From: an uncultured Candidatus Saccharibacteria bacterium
GTDB lineage: Bacteria; Patescibacteriota; Minisyncoccia; Phycocordibacterales; UBA12088
Assembly (NCBI GenBank): GCA_964562615.1
Contig: CAZLUD010000001.1
Location: 193,072-257,071, forward strand
Length of the DNA: 64,000 nt
Direction: 5' to 3'
The position numbers and the translations under genes are program-made. Every line of letters begins with the position of its first letter. Position 1 is the first letter of the stretch. Positions 2,241 to 50,150 of this stretch are shown in pieces. The notes under the pieces were generated by a model. The model saw only the letters and a program-made list of their open reading frames with translations. It searched no databases and had not been told where the DNA came from.

Positions 2241-3467
2241 TTGATATATAGCAACACCATCAAAGGGATGTCATATCAAACACGCAAGGCTGTATGTGCA
2301 CCATGCGTAAGTGTACTAAGCACCTTACCGCAATACCGATACAGCACGCATGACAATAAAGTAGTACAACCGTGGATATTCTTTTCTACTATTTGCTATA
2401 CTGCATGTATGCGATTTGGATACATACAACAATTTTTCTTCTTTGGATTACTACTAGTTACCACGGCTACCTTTTTGTGGATGATAGGTGGATTTATTAT
2501 GCCAATCTTTTGGGCAATAGTGCTTGCGATTGTCTTTTATCCCTTTTTTACTAGATGTGCTGACACACTATTTGATAACCGCACCGTTGCCTCACTCATT
2601 ACCATACTCATATTAATTGTTATCGTACTTGTTCCACTTATCAGTATTGCAGGGCTGGTGGTAAAAGAATCAATCACCCTCTATCAAACTATTACTGAAA
2701 ATGGCTCGGCGCAATCACAAACACTCTCATTACTCGGACACCTCGATGATCTCTCATATTATCTTGAGCCATACGGCATCTCGGAGGAGATGGTTAAAGA
2801 AAAGCTTAAATCATACGCCACAGGCATATCATCGTGGCTTACCTCGTCTGCTCTCACGGTGAGCCAAGTTACCTTTTCACTACTTATCAATATTTGTTTG
2901 ATGTTATATATATTGTTCTTTCTCCTTAAAGATGGTGATGCGATACAAAAAAAGCTGCTCCACATTCTCCCGCTTGGTGATAAATACGAAAAACTTCTTT
3001 TTGAACGTTTCAGCGCAACCACTCGTGCGGTAGTCAAAGGCACATTGGTAATTGCGGTTATACAAGGGCTCATAGGAGGTACACTCTTTTACCTTACTGG
3101 TGTTACTGCCCCTGTATTGTGGGGCGTAGTCATGACATTTCTTGCCATCATCCCAGCAGTTGGCCCAGCATTGGTGTGGATACCTGCTGGAGTCATTCTT
3201 ATCCTCTCAGGATTTCTATGGGAGGGCTTTACCATCCTTCTTGTAGGGAGCCTTCTTATTAGCCTTGTTGATAATGTCCTTCGGCCACTCCTTGTAGGAA
3301 GGGACACGCAAATGCCAGATGCTATTGTCTTACTTTCAACGATAGGAGGTCTTGCCTCATTTGGTATATCAGGCTTTGTAGTCGGGCCTATTGTTGCTGC
3401 ATTCTTTATTTCACTATGGTCAATCTTTGAAGAAAAGTACCACGCAGAGCTCTCTCAAAACACCTAA
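2241..3467 (+). CDS. AI-2E family transporter (PerM/UPF0118). The true start is probably internal, e.g. the Met at 2409.
   Basis: The C-terminal half VKGTLVIAVIQGLIGG...AIIPAVGPALVWIPAGVILIL...VDNVLRPLLVG is the typical AI-2E core, with multiple TM helices. Nucleotides 2200-2260 look like promoter sequence, so the 5' end of the ORF is likely not coding. Confidence 0.8.
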   Translation: MIYSNTIKGMSYQTRKAVCAPCVSVLSTLPQYRYSTHDNKVVQPWIFFSTICYTACMRFGYIQQFFFFGLLLVTTATFLWMIGGFIMPIFWAIVLAIVFYPFFTRCADTLFDNRTVASLITILILIVIVLVPLISIAGLVVKESITLYQTITENGSAQSQTLSLLGHLDDLSYYLEPYGISEEMVKEKLKSYATGISSWLTSSALTVSQVTFSLLINICLMLYILFFLLKDGDAIQKKLLHILPLGDKYEKLLFERFSATTRAVVKGTLVIAVIQGLIGGTLFYLTGVTAPVLWGVVMTFLAIIPAVGPALVWIPAGVILILSGFLWEGFTILLVGSLLISLVDNVLRPLLVGRDTQMPDAIVLLSTIGGLASFGISGFVVGPIVAAFFISLWSIFEEKYHAELSQNT

Positions 3468-4091
3468 CTATTTGATTAGTTCAATATATTCTCCAAGTAC
3501 CCATCCTTCTGTCTTTGCATCTACGACGATGAGGTACCAACCGTCTTTTGTATCTTTGTATTCATACTCAGTTCGTGGTGACACACGAGTGACGCGTGTA
3601 CCCGATGGAGATGGTGTTGCTCGAACATTAAGCCACCCTGTCTCGGTCTCACGTATGCGAAGCTTCTTAACCGCCGCTGTAGGAGCAGGCGACGTGCTGG
3701 TTGCTTGCGTACTTGTCGCTACTGAAGGAGGTGGCGTGAGGCTATCATCAAGTGGAGCTTCGTCAATCACTACTTCTGGCTTATTAGTAGTAGAAATGCC
3801 TAGGGTAAGAAAGTGCGGAGCATAAAAAACTATCCCTGCAATAATCCCAATTACTGCACTCACGACTACTATTTGAAATAGTACCCCTAAAAACGAAACG
3901 TCCTTAAAAAACGGTCGATGAGGTCGTGGCGGATACGGCTTATTACTTGCGGTGTAAGCTTCTTCTACCTCATCTTCAAATACGTCTTCTATAATCTCTT
4001 CATGCTCGTGTTCATGTGCATGTGCATTCTCGCTCGATTTTGTCTTACGAGTGATATCTTCTGTATGTGGTTTTTGTCGTTTGCCCTCCAT
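3468..4091 (-). CDS. Membrane-anchored protein with a C-terminal bacterial SH3 (SH3_3) domain and a His/Glu-rich N-terminus
   Basis: The C-terminus GWLNVRATPSPSGTRVTRV...DGWYLIVVDAKTEGWVLGEYIELI matches the SH3b consensus. There is a single TM helix, VLFQIVVVSAVIGIIAGIVFY, and the N-terminus carries HAHEHEHEE. Confidence 0.6.
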   Translation of the reverse strand: MEGKRQKPHTEDITRKTKSSENAHAHEHEHEEIIEDVFEDEVEEAYTASNKPYPPRPHRPFFKDVSFLGVLFQIVVVSAVIGIIAGIVFYAPHFLTLGISTTNKPEVVIDEAPLDDSLTPPPSVATSTQATSTSPAPTAAVKKLRIRETETGWLNVRATPSPSGTRVTRVSPRTEYEYKDTKDGWYLIVVDAKTEGWVLGEYIELIK

Positions 4092-4124: not shown

Positions 4125-6116
4125 CTATGCCTCAAACTTTTGTGGATCACACTCCTTGCACACCCCAAGTGAGGTGAGTTTAGCAAGATAATCAAGGACC
4201 GTAATGACATATTCTGCATGACTCCACACAAGTGGCGCAACAGAAACTTGGCTTCCAGTGTATGGATTAATCTGCTCTGACAAAATACCCGAAGGAGTGG
4301 CATATTTTGTCATCCATTCAAAGACTTTTCTCACTGTATCCAAGGCGGCATCATCTTTCGCAGTTGCAATATCAAATTGCGCAAACCATAGTGAAGTTAT
4401 AAACCAAGCATTTTCAGATGCCTCATCTCCTGATCTAAAGTACTGATCGTGTTCATATCGCTTGATACCTCCAATATGCGTATCTACTTGTAGCTTCTTT
4501 CTTGTTACGGTAAACGCTCGCATGAGTCGCTCGTCAGTAGGAGGAAGTACTCCAAAGCGAAACACGCCGTACGCACTACTTGCATCCATGGTTCTATCTG
4601 CATGAACCACCCCTCCTTCAATCGTTATTGAACGATAGAAAAATCCCTCCCCCGCATCATAGCAATGCTTGATGATGCTGTGCTGTATTTCTTTTGCAAC
4701 ATCACTATACGTTAGTGCTTCGTCATGCTTTCCTAAAAGGGTTGCAAATTTTGATGCAACGGTAAGCGCGCCAAATACCGATGATGCGGTAAAGGTATGT
4801 ACCCCGTATCGCTCTTCCCATATATCGTAACTCGGTAGTGGCATTCCTGTTTTTTCATCACGATACGCGCACAAAAATTGTGCCGTCTTTTTTATGAGTG
4901 TATTGTATACCTCTTCAATAAATTCAAGATCCTTGGATAGCTCGTAGTAGCGCCAGAGCGAATACAGTACAAGCGCGGTCTCATCCTCTTGAATAGGAAG
5001 TGCCCGTTTTCCCTCTTTTACCCATGGATGCCACGAGCTGCCAAGAGAGCCGTCAACACCATACTTATGCATAAAGTAACCACCGTCAGAAACTATCCGG
5101 TTACAAAACTCAAAAAAGCGTTTTGCCGGAGAGTAGGAACCTGATTGATATAGCGCAATCGTAGTAATAGCACCGTCACGTGGCCATGAGTATGCATAAG
5201 AGTCTTTACCTTGATGAAGAATATCAGAGTCCGAAGAAGCAATAACCGCACCGCCCGCGTCAACGTGTGCTCGAATAGTAAACAAAGATCGCTTGAACAA
5301 TGCAATTGCCTTCTCTCCCATACCGTAAAAGGTGTATGGTCTTCGACTAACCCATGCCCGCCAAAAGTCCGTCGTAGTAGTAATCAAATGCTGTGGGCCC
5401 TTTTGAAGCACATACGAATTAAGACTAACCACGTCAGGTATTGATGACCCCGCACACATCCAAAAAAACACCTCTTTTTGCTCACGAGGCAACAACCTAA
5501 GTCCACACCCAATCACCGAATCAGCTGGCCCATGTTCTATTGGGTTCTTAGAAAGTATTCCCTCTTCTGCGTCCCTAAAGGAACCTTCTTTATTCCATAT
5601 ACCCTGTATGCCGGTGGTGTACTCACTAAACTTTTTGCCATCAACCATTGCGTTTACCAAGAACACCCGCTTACCTTTATAATGAATGACTGTGTGCGTA
5701 TCGGGGTCAAAGTATGCCGTGTGTGCTGTTGATGATTCGTATATTTGAAACTCTTGTCCAAAGAAAATTTTTACCACTCGCTCATCATTGCGTTCATTTT
5801 TTATCAAAAACTTTCTCACCAAAATTGCTTTTTCGTTATACACCACATCAGTAATAGTAATAGAGATACCAAGTTCATGATTGTATGCAGTGGTAACACC
5901 AACCTGCGAATCCACCTCAGAGCCAACTTGTATATCCCACGCATTATCAACAAACCAATAAAAGGTTCCATCGACCCACACTCCTACACGATGAATAAGC
6001 CCCCTACCTACGTGGTTTTCTAATCCAACTTGTGGATAATACAAGTCCTTAACCTGCCCGTCGGCATCAAATCCTATGAGCAAATTACCATTTCCGAGGG
6101 TGAGCGATCTAGACAT
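4125..6116 (-). CDS. Glycoside hydrolase family 15-like (glucoamylase/glucodextranase/trehalase-type, COG3387)
   Basis: The 663-aa product has an N-terminal beta-sandwich region followed by an (alpha/alpha)6-type region carrying the YSWPRDGA motif characteristic of GH15. It sits in a locus with GH57 and GT4 genes. Confidence 0.7.
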   Translation of the reverse strand: MSRSLTLGNGNLLIGFDADGQVKDLYYPQVGLENHVGRGLIHRVGVWVDGTFYWFVDNAWDIQVGSEVDSQVGVTTAYNHELGISITITDVVYNEKAILVRKFLIKNERNDERVVKIFFGQEFQIYESSTAHTAYFDPDTHTVIHYKGKRVFLVNAMVDGKKFSEYTTGIQGIWNKEGSFRDAEEGILSKNPIEHGPADSVIGCGLRLLPREQKEVFFWMCAGSSIPDVVSLNSYVLQKGPQHLITTTTDFWRAWVSRRPYTFYGMGEKAIALFKRSLFTIRAHVDAGGAVIASSDSDILHQGKDSYAYSWPRDGAITTIALYQSGSYSPAKRFFEFCNRIVSDGGYFMHKYGVDGSLGSSWHPWVKEGKRALPIQEDETALVLYSLWRYYELSKDLEFIEEVYNTLIKKTAQFLCAYRDEKTGMPLPSYDIWEERYGVHTFTASSVFGALTVASKFATLLGKHDEALTYSDVAKEIQHSIIKHCYDAGEGFFYRSITIEGGVVHADRTMDASSAYGVFRFGVLPPTDERLMRAFTVTRKKLQVDTHIGGIKRYEHDQYFRSGDEASENAWFITSLWFAQFDIATAKDDAALDTVRKVFEWMTKYATPSGILSEQINPYTGSQVSVAPLVWSHAEYVITVLDYLAKLTSLGVCKECDPQKFEA

Positions 6117-35503: not shown

Positions 35504-36384
35504 TTAGCATAACAACGCTCTCTTGCTTTTCATACTTTCTACAATGTGGGTAGGCGCCCATGGTCTGCGCAACTGCAGTGCACCAAAGCTCACTGCATGA
35601 GCTCCCATCTTAAAAAGCGTACCAACATCTGCCTCACTCATAGCACTTGGTGCTATGACCGGAAGGGATCCTTGCGCTACAAGCTCCCCCACTGCCATCC
35701 AATTTCTATGCTGTGCTGGTGCACCCGATACTCCACCACCCCCACCACCAACACGCATCTCTAGTGCAGCAAGCGGTGTACGACTATGTGGAAATACCAT
35801 ATTCCACGGTACGCTGTTAAGTGATATCGCCCCAACAACACCACGCAACGCTGCAGCAATACTTATACACCCCTGGTCAACTGAAACTTTAATGATAATT
35901 GGGTGTTGTGATGCCACCTTCACCGCTCTCACCGAAGAAAGAATGTTTTGTATAGATTCTCTCGCCTCCCCACATTTGGACAAGAAAGATTGACCTCAAT
36001 GCCAACAAGAGGAATCCTGTTCAGCATTCTAGCCATCTCAACCAATTCCTCTTCTTTTCCATGTATTGAGACAACGATATTGTTGTCTCTGAAATTGATT
36101 GTTGGTGCAATCTTATTTAGCCAATAGATAATACCGGGATTGGTTAGCCCAATCTTATTCACCATACCGCCATCAATAAAGCGGACACTCCCTAAAGGAT
36201 TCCACCAGGTAAAGTTTCCTTTCAAGGGTTTAAGTGTCAACGTCTTTGTGACAATGGTGAATAGGTTTGGCTTTATGGCCCCACACCAAACAAGCGGCCG
36301 CTGGAAAAACCATCCATCTCCATACCCAAACGAGCTACTAGAAAGGACATGCTCAAAAGAGTGCCCGTTTGAAAGTGTAATCAT
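35504..36384 (-). pseudogene. pyrD: Dihydroorotate dehydrogenase-like gene split across two overlapping frames (35929..36384 and 35504..35983), frameshifted
   Basis: The upstream ORF has GLTNPGIIYWLN...VNLSCPNVG (DHODH/DPD family). The downstream ORF continues with KVSVDQ...GAISLNSV...GAHAVSFGALQL. The two overlap by 55 nt in different frames. This is either a genuine disabling mutation or an assembly error. Confidence 0.5.
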
Positions 36385-46578: not shown

Positions 46579-46605
46579 AGTACCACATCAGCATAGTGGC
46601 AAATG

Positions 46606-46678
46606 AGCCACCTCCCAGAATCGAACTGGGGACCTACGCGTTACGAATGCGTTGCTCTACCGACTGAGCTAAGGTGGC
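46606..46678 (-). tRNA. tRNA-Thr (anticodon CGU)
   Basis: Reverse complement GCCACCU UA GCUCAGUCGGUAGAGC A ACGCA uuCGUaa CGCGU AGGUC CCCAG UUCGAUU CUGGG AGGUGGC U. The cloverleaf is complete. Confidence 0.8.
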
Positions 46679-46689
46679 GCCCTGCAATG

Positions 46690-47289
46690 CTACGCCATAT
46701 CACGTAATTTTTCAATTTCACCAAGTAAGTGGTTCCTCAATCTTGAGTTGAGAAAATATACAGTAAGAACGCCATTCTGTGATTTATTTCTATACGTTCC
46801 CTTTTTATTTGATTTAGAAACTATTGTCTTATAAAACTGAGTCTTGGAAACATTAAGTTTATTTCTCCAAAATGCTTCTACTTGTGAGACTACCACATCA
46901 TTATGAACTTGAAGTGAAAATCGTAAGTCCCTTCGATTAATTACATATCTTTTTTCCAGAAAGTGGATGAAGCAATTTAAAAGATCTGGGTCACTATTAC
47001 CAAGCCTAATTTCACTTTTGTTCTTTTTATTTCCTTCCCCCCAGTACAAGCCTAACCCCAACCCAAGTAATAATATTTCTTTTTTATTTAATGGTGTAGT
47101 AACTGAAAATGGATTACCGTTAGGATTTTTCTTGGAATAAACTGCTTCTGAAATACTCCTTTTTGTTATTCCGTTCTTTTTCAACCAATAATTTACCTTA
47201 GATATTGAACAGCCAAGTATTGTAGCAATCTCTGAGGCTGATTTCTTTTCAAAAGAATATTGTTTGATCAACACAAATTTTGCGATCAT
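46690..47289 (-). CDS. LAGLIDADG-like homing-endonuclease-like protein with N-terminal HTH
   Basis: HTH-like SASEIATILGCSISKVNYWLKKNGI. LAGLIDADG-like block LLLGLGLGLYWGEGNKKN, followed by LLNCFIHFLEKRYVI. AT-rich. Lies between two tRNA-Thr genes, 58 nt downstream of the intron-containing one. The assignment is from motif reading only. Confidence 0.4.
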   Translation of the reverse strand: MIAKFVLIKQYSFEKKSASEIATILGCSISKVNYWLKKNGITKRSISEAVYSKKNPNGNPFSVTTPLNKKEILLLGLGLGLYWGEGNKKNKSEIRLGNSDPDLLNCFIHFLEKRYVINRRDLRFSLQVHNDVVVSQVEAFWRNKLNVSKTQFYKTIVSKSNKKGTYRNKSQNGVLTVYFLNSRLRNHLLGEIEKLRDMA

Positions 47290-49068: not shown

Positions 49069-49128
49069 ATGGGGTAATTATATACTATGTAGTAGCTGCA
49101 GCCATGCAATAAGTATATACGAAATACG

Positions 49129-49484
49129 TTGCGCGAGTGATGGGACTGACCCGCTTTTTCTAAGCCCTATGGGGCTAAGAACGCTGGTCGCGCCTCGCCG
49201 ACAAGCACTCGCCTTGCTCGTCTTGTATACCGGCTCCGGCGTTCAAGTCCCATCTCATTCGTCGCAAATGCAACAACAGCAAAGCATTCGCTTTGCTGTT
49301 GGCATATTGCGCGAGTGATGGGACTGACCCGCTTTTTCTAAGCCCTATGGGGCTAAGAACGCTGGTCGCGCCTCGCCGACAAGCACTCGCCTTGCTCGTC
49401 TTGTATACCGGCTCCGGCGTTCAAGTCCCATCTCATTCGTCGCAAATGCAACAACAGCAAAGCATTCGCTTTGCTGTTGGCATA
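49129..49484. repeat. Two tandem 178-bp direct repeats immediately downstream of tRNA-Asp, each beginning with a copy of the tRNA 3'-terminal ~19 nt
   Basis: Units 49129..49306 and 49307..49484 are essentially identical. Each starts ttgcgcgagtgatgggact, which equals the tRNA-Asp 3' end at 49485..49503. Each unit contains 8-bp and 12-bp perfect hairpins (ctaagccc/gggcttag and caacagcaaagc/gctttgctgttg). ORFs 48971..49318 and 49293..49496 are translations of this repeat. Confidence 0.85.
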
Positions 49485-49487
49485 TTG

Positions 49488-49561
49488 CGCGAGTGATGGG
49501 ACTTGAACCCACGACCTCTCCCGTGACAGGGGAGCGCTCTAACCAGCTGAGCTACACCCGC
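49488..49561 (-). tRNA. tRNA-Asp (anticodon GUC)
   Basis: Reverse complement GCGGGUG UA GCUC AGCUGGUUA GAGC G CUCCC cuGUCac GGGAG AGGUC GUGGG UUCAAGU CCCAU CACUCGC G. G73 discriminator. Confidence 0.85.
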
Positions 49562-49609
49562 AACTACCGCATACGTAATGCGTGTAGCGAGAGTATATAT
49601 ATATTTTGG

Positions 49610-49813
49610 CTATTTCGCAAACGTCAAAATGAGTCTATGGATAAGAATAGAAATCCATGAAATCCCAAAAACAAGCCCAATGATAAGACAAGTTGGAATA
49701 AATTCGACAGGAAAGAGCATGTTGTCCCCTGTCCAAATTGTCACAATCCCTAGCGTTGCGGTAATAATAGTAAAACTCAGAAACCCATTACGTAAATATA
49801 GTACTGTATTCAT
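49610..49813 (-). CDS. Possible small two-TM membrane protein (67 aa)
   Basis: Two hydrophobic helices. It lies between tRNA scars. Weak call. Confidence 0.25.
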   Translation of the reverse strand: MNTVLYLRNGFLSFTIITATLGIVTIWTGDNMLFPVEFIPTCLIIGLVFGISWISILIHRLILTFAK

Positions 49814-49920
49814 GCAGTATATAACTGTGGGTAATAGTTTGGGTTACAAAAATGCTCTATTCCCCCACAAACAGTGCGAAAGCACTGTTCTCCACCAACA
49901 CGGCGTTCACTTTGTTCACT

Positions 49921-49943
49921 TGTGTCGGCGGGAGGGATCGAAT
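49921..49943. repeat. Partial duplicate (22/23 nt) of the tRNA-Met 3' end (T-loop to acceptor), 134 bp downstream of the tRNA
   Basis: tgtgtcggcgggagggatcgaa is identical to 50075..50096. The T-stem partner is missing, so this is not a functional tRNA. A 9-bp inverted repeat ggatcgaa/ttcgatcc lies nearby. Confidence 0.6.
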
Positions 49944-50076
49944 CTTACAGATTCAGTACACCTTTTGGATATTTTTTTCGCAAGCTCAAAAATACCTCAA
50001 AAGGTCTTCGATCCCGCGTTACGCTCTTTCTTTGAAAGAGCTACGCCCCGCCTCCTTCAACTCACTCTGTTCGTTG

Positions 50077-50150
50077 TGTCGGCGGGAGGGATCGAACCTC
50101 CGACCTCAGCTTTATGAGTGCTGTGCTCTAACCATCTGAGCTACGCCGAC
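50077..50150 (-). tRNA. tRNA-Met/Ile2 family (anticodon CAU). Elongator Met versus lysidine-Ile cannot be decided from sequence.
   Basis: Reverse complement GUCGGCG UA GCUC AGAUGGUUA GAGC A CAGCA cuCAUaa AGCUG AGGUC GGAGG UUCGAUC CCUCC CGCCGAC A. The anticodon stem lacks the three-GC signature of initiators. Confidence 0.8.

Follow-up and report, generated by a model that had tools for sequence, protein, structure and literature searches.

Tandem folded units behind a Patescibacterial tRNA-Asp gene belong to a large family of elements whose closing helix re-uses the 3' end of the tRNA

Introduction

Genomic islands and prophages integrate at tRNA genes, and their att direct repeats are cores of the tRNA 3' end, of the P4 type. 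Williams, in 2002, reportedly distinguished sublocation classes among such tRNA-integrating elements. Integron attC sites and the attP of CTX phage represent another kind of recombination site, in which structure is kept while sequence varies and which feature an imperfect inverted-repeat stem, arrays, and strand specificity. MITEs and REP repeats are short and structured, occur in many copies within a genome, and have inverted termini with a direct repeat on either side. On the RNA side, the trailer of a tRNA transcript is a non-coding segment behind the tRNA that is removed in 3' maturation. One such trailer, the 3'ETS-leuZ of E. coli, is said to act as a sponge. Removal of terminators from tRNA transcripts by RNase P or PNPase is described in two reports (PMC2811032, PMC4176162). 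Additionally, the bacterial Y RNA YrlA is portrayed as a small tRNA-mimic RNA that re-uses acceptor and T-stem sequence and may occur in tandem copies; it is linked to rsr and keeps the T-loop and D-arm (PMC4201824).

The present analysis concerns two tandem units behind tRNA-Asp in the window, which is the whole 64-kb stretch of DNA that was analysed. They belong to a large and previously undescribed family of three-way junctions, in each of which a duplicate of the tRNA 3' end pairs with its own antisense to form the closing helix. No description of this family was found in the literature, including a survey of 224 motifs, and to our knowledge no described RNA or mobile element has this build.

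The elements share with att repeats a direct repeat of 16–26 nt that is taken from the tRNA 3' end and starts at the T-loop, together with tandem accretion beside the tRNA and a flank that is a hotspot for inserted genes (loci L028, L018, and L004). In contrast to att islands, the element DNA measures only 90–180 nt, is non-coding and conserved in structure with covariation, and carries an inverted copy of the repeat. Moreover, the elements have no linked integrase, stand behind at least 17 tRNA types, and occur inside tRNA operons. The elements resemble attC and the CTX-phage attP in all the features named above, whereas they differ from attC in that their stem is copied from the adjacent tRNA, in that they have no IntI or Xer context, and in that no non-tRNA family of Rfam matches them. 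The stem ends of the units read GTTCAAG.../...CTTGAAC, with C at position 4, as against RYYYAAC / GTTRRRY for the R''/R' motifs of attC, and the units thus have no such core sites. MITEs are likewise similar in size, folding, number, and arrangement of repeats, but the termini of the elements differ from site to site, being the local tRNA end, and the elements are confined to tRNA 3' flanks in one orientation. Furthermore, their core is conserved by compensatory changes instead of sequence identity. The terminal strands follow the adjacent tRNA, and no other copy of the unit was found in the window.

As in known tRNA trailers, a hairpin directly follows the tRNA, and transcription of the elements is predicted here. 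Known trailers, unlike the elements, have no conserved multi-helix core, antisense strand, duplicated tRNA end, or genome-wide family. The elements share with YrlA the small size and the borrowed acceptor and T-stem sequence, and they differ in having a three-way junction in place of the T-loop. Unlike in Y RNAs, the closing helix of the elements runs past the discriminator and copies the adjacent tRNA; no Y RNA or tRNA-like family of Rfam matches them.

Architecture of the tandem units

The tRNA-Asp(GUC) gene lies on the minus strand at 49487..49561 (ARAGORN and Rfam place its lower boundary at 49487/8) and scores 69.4 bits with Rfam RF00005. The sequence-only reading had claimed two near-perfect 178-bp units directly downstream of it. 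Both are there, and they are 100% identical in the repeat search. Unit 1 (49307..49484, minus strand, 178 nt) adjoins the tRNA, and unit 2 (49129..49306, minus strand) is distal. TRF reports a single array at 49129–49503 with a period of 178, 2.1 copies, 100% matches, and a score of 750. The 19-mer TTGCGCGAGTGATGGGACT recurs at 49129, 49307, and 49485, and even with up to three mismatches allowed the 64 kb contain exactly these three sites, where chance would give 0.02. This 19-nt block, here called A, consists of tRNA-Asp positions 58–73 plus three trailer bases (CAA). Its upstream copy (49485–49503, minus strand) is thus the last 16 nt of the tRNA with three trailer nucleotides. The block that had been described as opening each unit is real; its place is at the other end, as each unit ends with it in the orientation of the tRNA.

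Each unit follows the order Hp0, A', P2, P3, and A, all on the minus strand. Hp0 is a perfect 12-bp hairpin, CAACAGCAAAGC-GAAU-GCUUUGCUGUUG, at 49452..49479 in unit 1 and 49274–49301 in unit 2. It is followed by A', UUGCGACGAAUGAGAUGGGACUUGAAC (49419..49445 and 49241–49267), which is antisense to tRNA-Asp positions 53–73 plus the trailer and forms the 5' strand of helix P1. P2 (49370..49418 and 49192–49240) is built as GCC / GGA internal loop / variable hairpin / GA / GGC. P3 (49326..49369 and 49148–49191) reads GCGACC...GCGGGUC. The closing block A, AGUCCCAUCACUCGCGCAA (49307..49325 and 49129–49147), is the copy of the tRNA 3' end and provides the 3' strand of P1.

Because the tRNA 3' end is also present in every unit in inverted form, including a perfect stretch of 14 nt (GTTCAAGTCCCATC), a long helix closes the unit. 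Folded alone, each unit forms the 12-bp hairpin Hp0 and a three-way junction closed by the A'/A helix. The unit folds far more stably than shuffled sequences do, with z = -7.1 in the sense and -9.3 in the antisense direction. Instead of the two stable hairpins per unit proposed earlier, three hairpins and a long closing helix were found. That the 19-nt block supplies the 3' side of a helix, and that the 5' side of this helix is complementary to the tRNA end, had escaped the sequence-only reading.

The locus sits among housekeeping genes, including DsbB, a ZIP transporter, RF2, FtsE/X, CTP synthase, GatA, LigA (the NAD-dependent ligase), and a type IV pilus cluster. The neighbourhood is that of a small chromosome of the Patescibacteria type. 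At the gathering threshold, Rfam 15 returned only five tRNAs from the whole window. At E <= 10, no match fell within the units (49129–49484) apart from one chance-level microRNA row, mir-4477, which spans the tRNA 3' end into unit 1 with 17.6 bits (E = 5.7), where the gathering score is 74. An Rfam search of 18 related loci yielded only tRNAs and one group I intron.

A family of elements behind many tRNAs

A scan of one genome per species with the 19-mer gave 28 loci, of which 22 are Patescibacterial tRNA-Asp loci. Sixteen of these 22, counted from the sequences, have between one and three elements downstream that are built like the window units: a hairpin is followed by a strand in antisense to the tRNA end, then by two more hairpins and a tRNA-end copy. 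The same build is found behind tRNA-Met, initiator tRNA-Met, and tRNA-Thr, and each time the terminal strands match the element's own tRNA. A metagenome scan with a core sequence pattern then provided at least 120 loci; conservation at the pattern positions is biased in this sample because the pattern was used to select it. Of these at least 120 loci, 80 were searched with model R1, which confirmed 95 elements in them. Altogether, at least 122 elements were recovered from CPR MAGs and metagenome contigs.

The position of the elements is highly regular. A tRNA on the same strand lies within 300 nt upstream in 92 of 122 cases, representing 17 amino-acid types, and most of the other elements are at contig ends. 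Neighbouring elements and tRNAs are on the same strand in 100 of 102 pairs and on opposite strands in two. In 36 cases the stretch identical to the tRNA has its start in the T-loop (offset -19 or -21), and copy A usually begins at T-loop C56. Among the 176 tRNAs of these loci, 83 (47%) have an element; the selection of loci that contain one biases this figure upward. Another tRNA follows within 120 nt behind 11 elements. A second class of architecture has A' paired with the final 2–5 nt of the tRNA and with the trailer, and here the element stands 8–11 nt behind the tRNA; at L089 and L069 this distance leaves a promoter no room, and the L089 element lies between tRNA-Lys and the next tRNA. About a quarter of the members, the 'trailer class', have little or no downstream A block. 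Single-copy loci predominate, and tandem arrays recur.

The window units are members of this family by their P1 from the tRNA end, the AA, P2, the GG, P3, the strand, and the place. Model R1 hits the window at 49318–49431 (unit 1, 50 bits) and 49140–49253 (unit 2). A second covariance model, R2, was built from the 95 metagenome members and holds no window sequence. In the 64 kb it finds only the two units (22.5 bits, E = 3e-4), and this independent score is no higher because P3 of the window deviates from the consensus. R2 aligns P1, J, and P2 with high posterior probability and P3 as a flipped variant. Whereas the family consensus of P3 is GGUCGCG...GUGACC with a bulged A in between, the base helix is flipped in the window units, which have GACC...GGUC where the family has GGUC...GACC, a flip of four pairs.

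Structure and covariation

The minimum-energy folds of 25 members gave the same three-way junction. In alignment A1, which comprises 19 hand-trimmed cores with a consensus of 21 pairs, compensatory changes occur in 17 of the 21. Its cells are paired in 96.6% of cases, as against 29–47% when the partner is slid by 1–3 columns, and double-change cells number 102 against 11–21 in the slid controls. None of 500 shuffles reached the covariation score of A1. The 93 distinct metagenome members behave alike, with 94.4% of cells paired and 475 double-change cells against 28–64 in slid controls; this alignment leans towards the structure because it was fitted to the model and pre-selected by pattern. 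Over both alignments, pairing in the slid controls ranges from 28 to 47%.

Several unpaired positions are conserved as well, including the AA of the junction, the GG before P3, and the bulged A in P3. P2 is the most conserved module of the family and consists of 3 bp, an internal loop of G(G/C)A // GA, which is conserved too, and a variable hairpin. It does not represent a K-turn, as the strand between P2a and P2b has 3 nt where 5 are required. A retroviral-type primer-binding site was also rejected, given that A' complements the gene-encoded trailer CAA and not CCA.

In 30 of 41 members the pairing of A' with A passes the discriminator, and in 15–26 of 41 it reaches the trailer; within the four bases that follow the discriminator it fades. 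With such pairing, P1 does not faithfully mimic an acceptor end with a free 3' tail, and a role as a simple RNase P or RNase Z substrate is weakened by this. The elements are quite probably a family of functional single-stranded structures, presumably RNA.

Strand, transcription, and a possible role as tRNA trailer

The structure favours the tRNA-sense strand, on which G·U pairs are common. For instance, pair 116/200 is G·U in 45 sequences and G-C in 38. In 24 of 25 elements the sense strand has the more favourable fold; mean energies are -43.6 kcal/mol for sense and -36.3 kcal/mol for antisense (p = 1.6e-5). This bias alone is no proof of RNA, because folded single-stranded DNA also tolerates G·T pairs. 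An RNA trailer is nevertheless the likeliest reading, since both G·U pairs and fold energies are sense-sided and some copies lie 8–11 nt behind a tRNA or between tRNAs. Judged from such spacing, transcription of these copies together with the tRNA would be hardly avoidable.

In a sigma-70 consensus scan, no promoter-like match fell between tRNA-Asp and the units, and matches in the window were found just upstream of tRNA-Asp and of tRNA-Met. The match ahead of tRNA-Asp, TTGCGA-17-TATACT (49592..49620, minus strand), is a candidate promoter by consensus only. The earlier suggestion that the repeat might be a structured RNA processed from the tRNA transcript fits the covariation, the strand-specific G·U pairs, the constant co-orientation, and the lack of a promoter-like match of its own, and it remains the best fit among the readings considered. 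We rate the chance that the unit is an RNA domain co-transcribed as a tRNA trailer as somewhat better than even.

The element would then act as RNA, made from the tRNA promoter as part of the 3' trailer, with transcription assumed to continue through Hp0. Two alternative partners are predicted for A', namely the 3' end of the tRNA itself (helix H1) and the downstream copy A (helix P1). When the whole locus is folded (446 nt), each A block pairs with the A' that comes after it, and the T-arm and acceptor strand of the tRNA are thereby invaded. A downstream copy of A would offer A' a partner other than the tRNA, so that n units need n + 1 copies of A, which is the 2.1-copy pattern of the locus. 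During or after release of the tRNA 3' end, the trailer would fold into the junction instead of invading the tRNA. From the layout and the predicted folds we infer both the transcription and the competition between H1 and P1. The P2/P3 core would most likely provide a platform that binds a protein or ligand and controls or assists tRNA 3' maturation or turnover of the trailer. No linked protein partner was found among 86 ORFs adjoining family members. A role specifically in gating or processing the tRNA 3' end is put forward tentatively and falls short of an even chance.

Two features sit uneasily with a trailer RNA. Between the tRNA and A', many family members have a strong terminator-like hairpin; this would be unexpected in an RNA transcribed together with the tRNA and counts against this reading. 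In the window, both Hp0 copies (12 bp) are called terminator-like, weakly, with a weak U-tail, UUGCAUUUGC; related Hp0 hairpins share a conserved GCAAA-CUGC-UUUGC module and have no U-tracts. Furthermore, a perfect complementarity of up to about 20 nt, tailored to each tRNA, exceeds what selection on an RNA would need and suggests a templated origin at the DNA level. The complementarity of A' to the whole block is the main point that a trailer RNA leaves unexplained.

If the trailer reading is true, about half of the tRNA genes at the sampled CPR loci (a figure biased upward) have a conserved folded trailer domain, which would point to an undiscovered layer of tRNA 3'-end maturation or control in organisms with minimal genomes. 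The alternative would be a new kind of tRNA-targeted mobile element. In practice, short-read assemblies break at tRNA loci because of these repeats, which may also be mistaken for prophage att sites. The more than 120 members recovered suffice to define a new RNA family that can be tested in metatranscriptomes.

Mobile DNA as the main alternative

The sequence-only reading took the reiterated tRNA end as the footprint of an integrase at att sites. Of this, the direct repeat of the tRNA 3' end stands, while the cargo and recombinase context expected with it were not found. The segment between A blocks is a conserved, folded stretch of 159 bp with no ORF, cargo, or cassette, and family members lie inside tRNA operons. 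As a scar of att recombination, the locus is thus not supported. ORF records were also sought for further assemblies through the spurious ORFs that span the unit boundaries, and no record matched.

A miniature mobile or integrative DNA element is the strongest competitor of the trailer RNA, and we hold it to be unlikely, with an appreciable residual weight. It would be an attP-like module free of cargo, possibly acting as folded single-stranded DNA in the manner of integron attC or CTX-phage attP. Its A'/A stem would recreate a duplex copy of the target in the tRNA gene, the T-loop of the tRNA would be the site where a recombinase encoded elsewhere inserts it, and each further insertion would lengthen the array. 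Such an element would account for the sharp and recurrent left boundary of the direct repeats in the T-loop, for arrays made of different units (L015, L012), and for the complementarity of A' to the entire block including trailer bases. It also agrees with two elements of L022, behind tRNA-Asp and tRNA-Thr, which have near-identical P2 and P1 strands specific to their tRNAs, with islands placed exactly at the block boundary (the retron island of L028 and the ATP-grasp ORF of L018), and with a tRNA 3' flank that is hypervariable between strains (L004). Turnover at the DNA level is indeed real, as the tRNA flank is an insertion hotspot at L028, L018, and L004 and the L022 elements share P2.

Several observations nevertheless argue against mobility of the element itself. 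The 30 ORFs scanned with Pfam between 35.5 and 64 kb of the window, which are all longest non-overlapping ORFs of at least 90 aa there except the antisense ORF 49578–50117(+), include no integrase, transposase, or RT. The 86 ORFs beside family members are unrelated housekeeping genes with no enriched family, none matching more than two ORFs, and no recombinase is present among the 25 of 77 matched families listed for them. Moreover, one recombinase would have to serve at least 17 tRNA sequences and re-tailor both stem strands at every move. Internal loops and a bulged A that are conserved, together with compensatory changes in hairpins of variable length, are features typically seen in RNA, and some members lie between the tRNAs of one operon. 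The expectation that the 19-nt core would be carried by outside elements found no support either, with 0 matches in viral contigs; the sole family match in those contigs is at the end of a contig of 34.7 kb.

The insertions at these flanks are of different kinds. At L028, a retron (type VII-A2 RT and nucleotidyltransferase) lies between tRNA-Asp and a decayed element and is flanked by 11-nt repeats. An ATP-grasp gene separates two elements with the same hairpin and A' at L018. At L004, a nucleotidyltransferase gene is inserted 17 nt behind the unit. GAAC and CAAG flank the core, and a target of the IS91 type was considered, as were origins by rolling hairpin or template switch.

A more radical variant, which we regard as improbable, is that the unit is the copy in the genome of a small 'dumbbell' circle of RNA or single-stranded DNA, with a rod stem of A and A' capped by Hp0 and by P2/P3. 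The A blocks upstream and downstream would be a single segment in such a circle. The 2.1-copy array would be its multimer, cut at corresponding sites of consecutive A blocks and afterwards ligated. Pushed further, and with equally slim prospects, the unit would be the chromosomal copy of a self-propagating, dumbbell-shaped single-stranded circle of about 110–180 nt, RNA or DNA, with a stem that duplicates the 3' end of a tRNA gene. It would enter at T-loop position 55/56 by means of this stem and leave as a circle after cleavage in successive A blocks. Such a parasite would be viroid- or retrozyme-like and could be retargeted to any tRNA. The order A-Hp0-A'-core-A-Hp0-A'-core-A is a circular permutation repeated 2.1 times, the registers H1 and P1 are interchangeable in folds, and tandem arrays recur in the family. 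However, no ribozyme family of Rfam matches at E <= 10, members of the trailer class have no or hardly any downstream A, and most loci are single-copy. The junction, checked by eye, does not fit hammerhead, twister, HDV, or hatchet.

Tandem state and copy number among strains

The identity of the two window units, the breaking of short-read contigs of the same species at the repeat, and the single unit in one strain assembly (L006) would suit a mere assembly artefact, in which the assembler expanded one unit to two. This had been named as the observation that would undo the tandem array, and we consider it very improbable. Contigs from other datasets that encode identical flanking proteins were compared for this purpose. 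Three near-identical strains (L006, L001, and L004) have one unit each, whereas two others (L003 and L159) have at least two tandem units. Because the units of L003 and L159 differ from each other by substitutions, they cannot be collapsed or expanded copies, and the tandem state occurs in nature, in two independent datasets. Several of these strain substitutions keep the pairing: a G·U pair became U·G in P2b of L003, and a G-C pair became G·U in P3 of L159. Many short-read contigs of this species end inside the repeat, as is expected of any repeat. Exact tandem pairs are also found in other species, for example 2 x 122 nt at L021 and 2 x 108 nt at L029.

Across strains, copy number therefore varies between one and at least two units, and some species have no element. 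The copy-number differences and exact tandem duplications are probably due to unequal recombination or slippage between the repeated A blocks. This pattern of one versus at least two units, and of presence versus absence between species, would result from recombination between the repeats as well as from integration.

It is scarcely credible that the units are decayed pseudo-tRNAs, left as neutral partial duplications by a tandem duplication of the tRNA-Asp gene. Each unit closes with the exact tRNA 3' end, and the GCGAGUG of the P2 loop has the potential to pair with the acceptor strand, but covariation across the family largely refutes this origin. The core is unrelated to tRNA and common to elements that stand behind tRNAs of 17 types, nothing in a tRNA corresponds to the antisense strand A', and neither ARAGORN nor RF00005 calls the units as tRNA or tRNA-like on either strand.

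A related element behind tRNA-Met

A tRNA-Met(CAU) gene at 50076–50150 lies 590 bp from tRNA-Asp and has a related element of its own, which the sequence-only reading had missed together with the large family. This type-2 element (49920..50075, minus strand) directly follows the gene. It opens with an antisense strand that contains an inserted hairpin, continues with a long hairpin with a GAGC..GCGA loop and a GUAC followed by a hairpin with a CUGUAAG loop, and is closed by a copy of the tRNA-Met 3' end of 23–26 nt at 49920–49945.

Type-2 Element and Recurrent Hairpin

The second subtype of the element, type 2, is kin to the tRNA-Asp units and lies on the minus strand at 49920–50075 of the window, downstream of tRNA-Met (50076–50150). 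It combines an antisense strand, into which a hairpin is inserted, with a long hairpin whose loop reads GAGC..GCGA and with GUAC followed by a hairpin with a CUGUAAG loop; a 23–26-nt copy of the tRNA-Met 3' end comes after these. Across the roughly 1 Mb of loci retrieved, a regular expression for the type-2 module matched 15 times, and the flanking type-2 architecture was present in 13 of these matches.

Many loci of the family also share a small hairpin of near-constant sequence, GCAAA-CUGC-UUUGC, which is placed either immediately 3' of the tRNA or, where the acceptor stem meets the T stem, inside the antisense strand (examples among the comparison loci are L104, L084, L049, L078, L073, L015 unit 2, L021, and L035). 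Hp0, the first hairpin of each window unit (GCAAAGC-GAAU-GCUUUGC), is similar to it.

The 34.7-kb IMG/VR contig L035, listed as viral, terminates in at least three tandem family elements (2840–3319); it may be a wrongly classified CPR fragment or a phage bearing the element. The array behind the initiator tRNA-Met of L021 (~1000–1300) is interrupted within its repeated units by a scaffold gap (a stretch of N), which shows that such arrays break or confuse assemblies.

Introns and Inserted Genes at tRNA-Asp

The tRNA-Asp gene is split by a group I intron in two CPR MAGs, at 5972–6292 in L034 (Rfam, 84 bits) and upstream of 7470 in L012, and neither split gene was called by ARAGORN. Genes are also inserted at the tRNA-Asp flanks. 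At 3990–6800 of L028, a Zambryskibacteria MAG, an island bordered by the 11-nt repeat TCGCGCAAAGC lies between tRNA-Asp and a decayed element, and encodes a DUF2204 nucleotidyltransferase, a 230-aa protein of unknown function, and a retron-type reverse transcriptase (best match RT_VII-A2). The near-identical strain L004 (210–900, a variant of window 49069–49128) carries between the unit and dsbB a gene for a 182-aa NTP_transf_6 nucleotidyltransferase, which is missing from the corresponding site of the window and has the short repeat ATTGCA on its borders.

Other Genes of the Window

Directly upstream of tRNA-Thr (46605–46678), a free-standing minus-strand ORF (46690–47289) encodes 199 aa with an N-terminal HTH, for which Pfam matches are weak only; the stretch GLGLGLYWGEGNK looks like a LAGLIDADG homing-endonuclease motif. 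Two neighbouring, overlapping minus-strand ORFs at 35504–36384 match different halves of dihydroorotate dehydrogenase (PF01180) and may represent a frameshifted or split gene.
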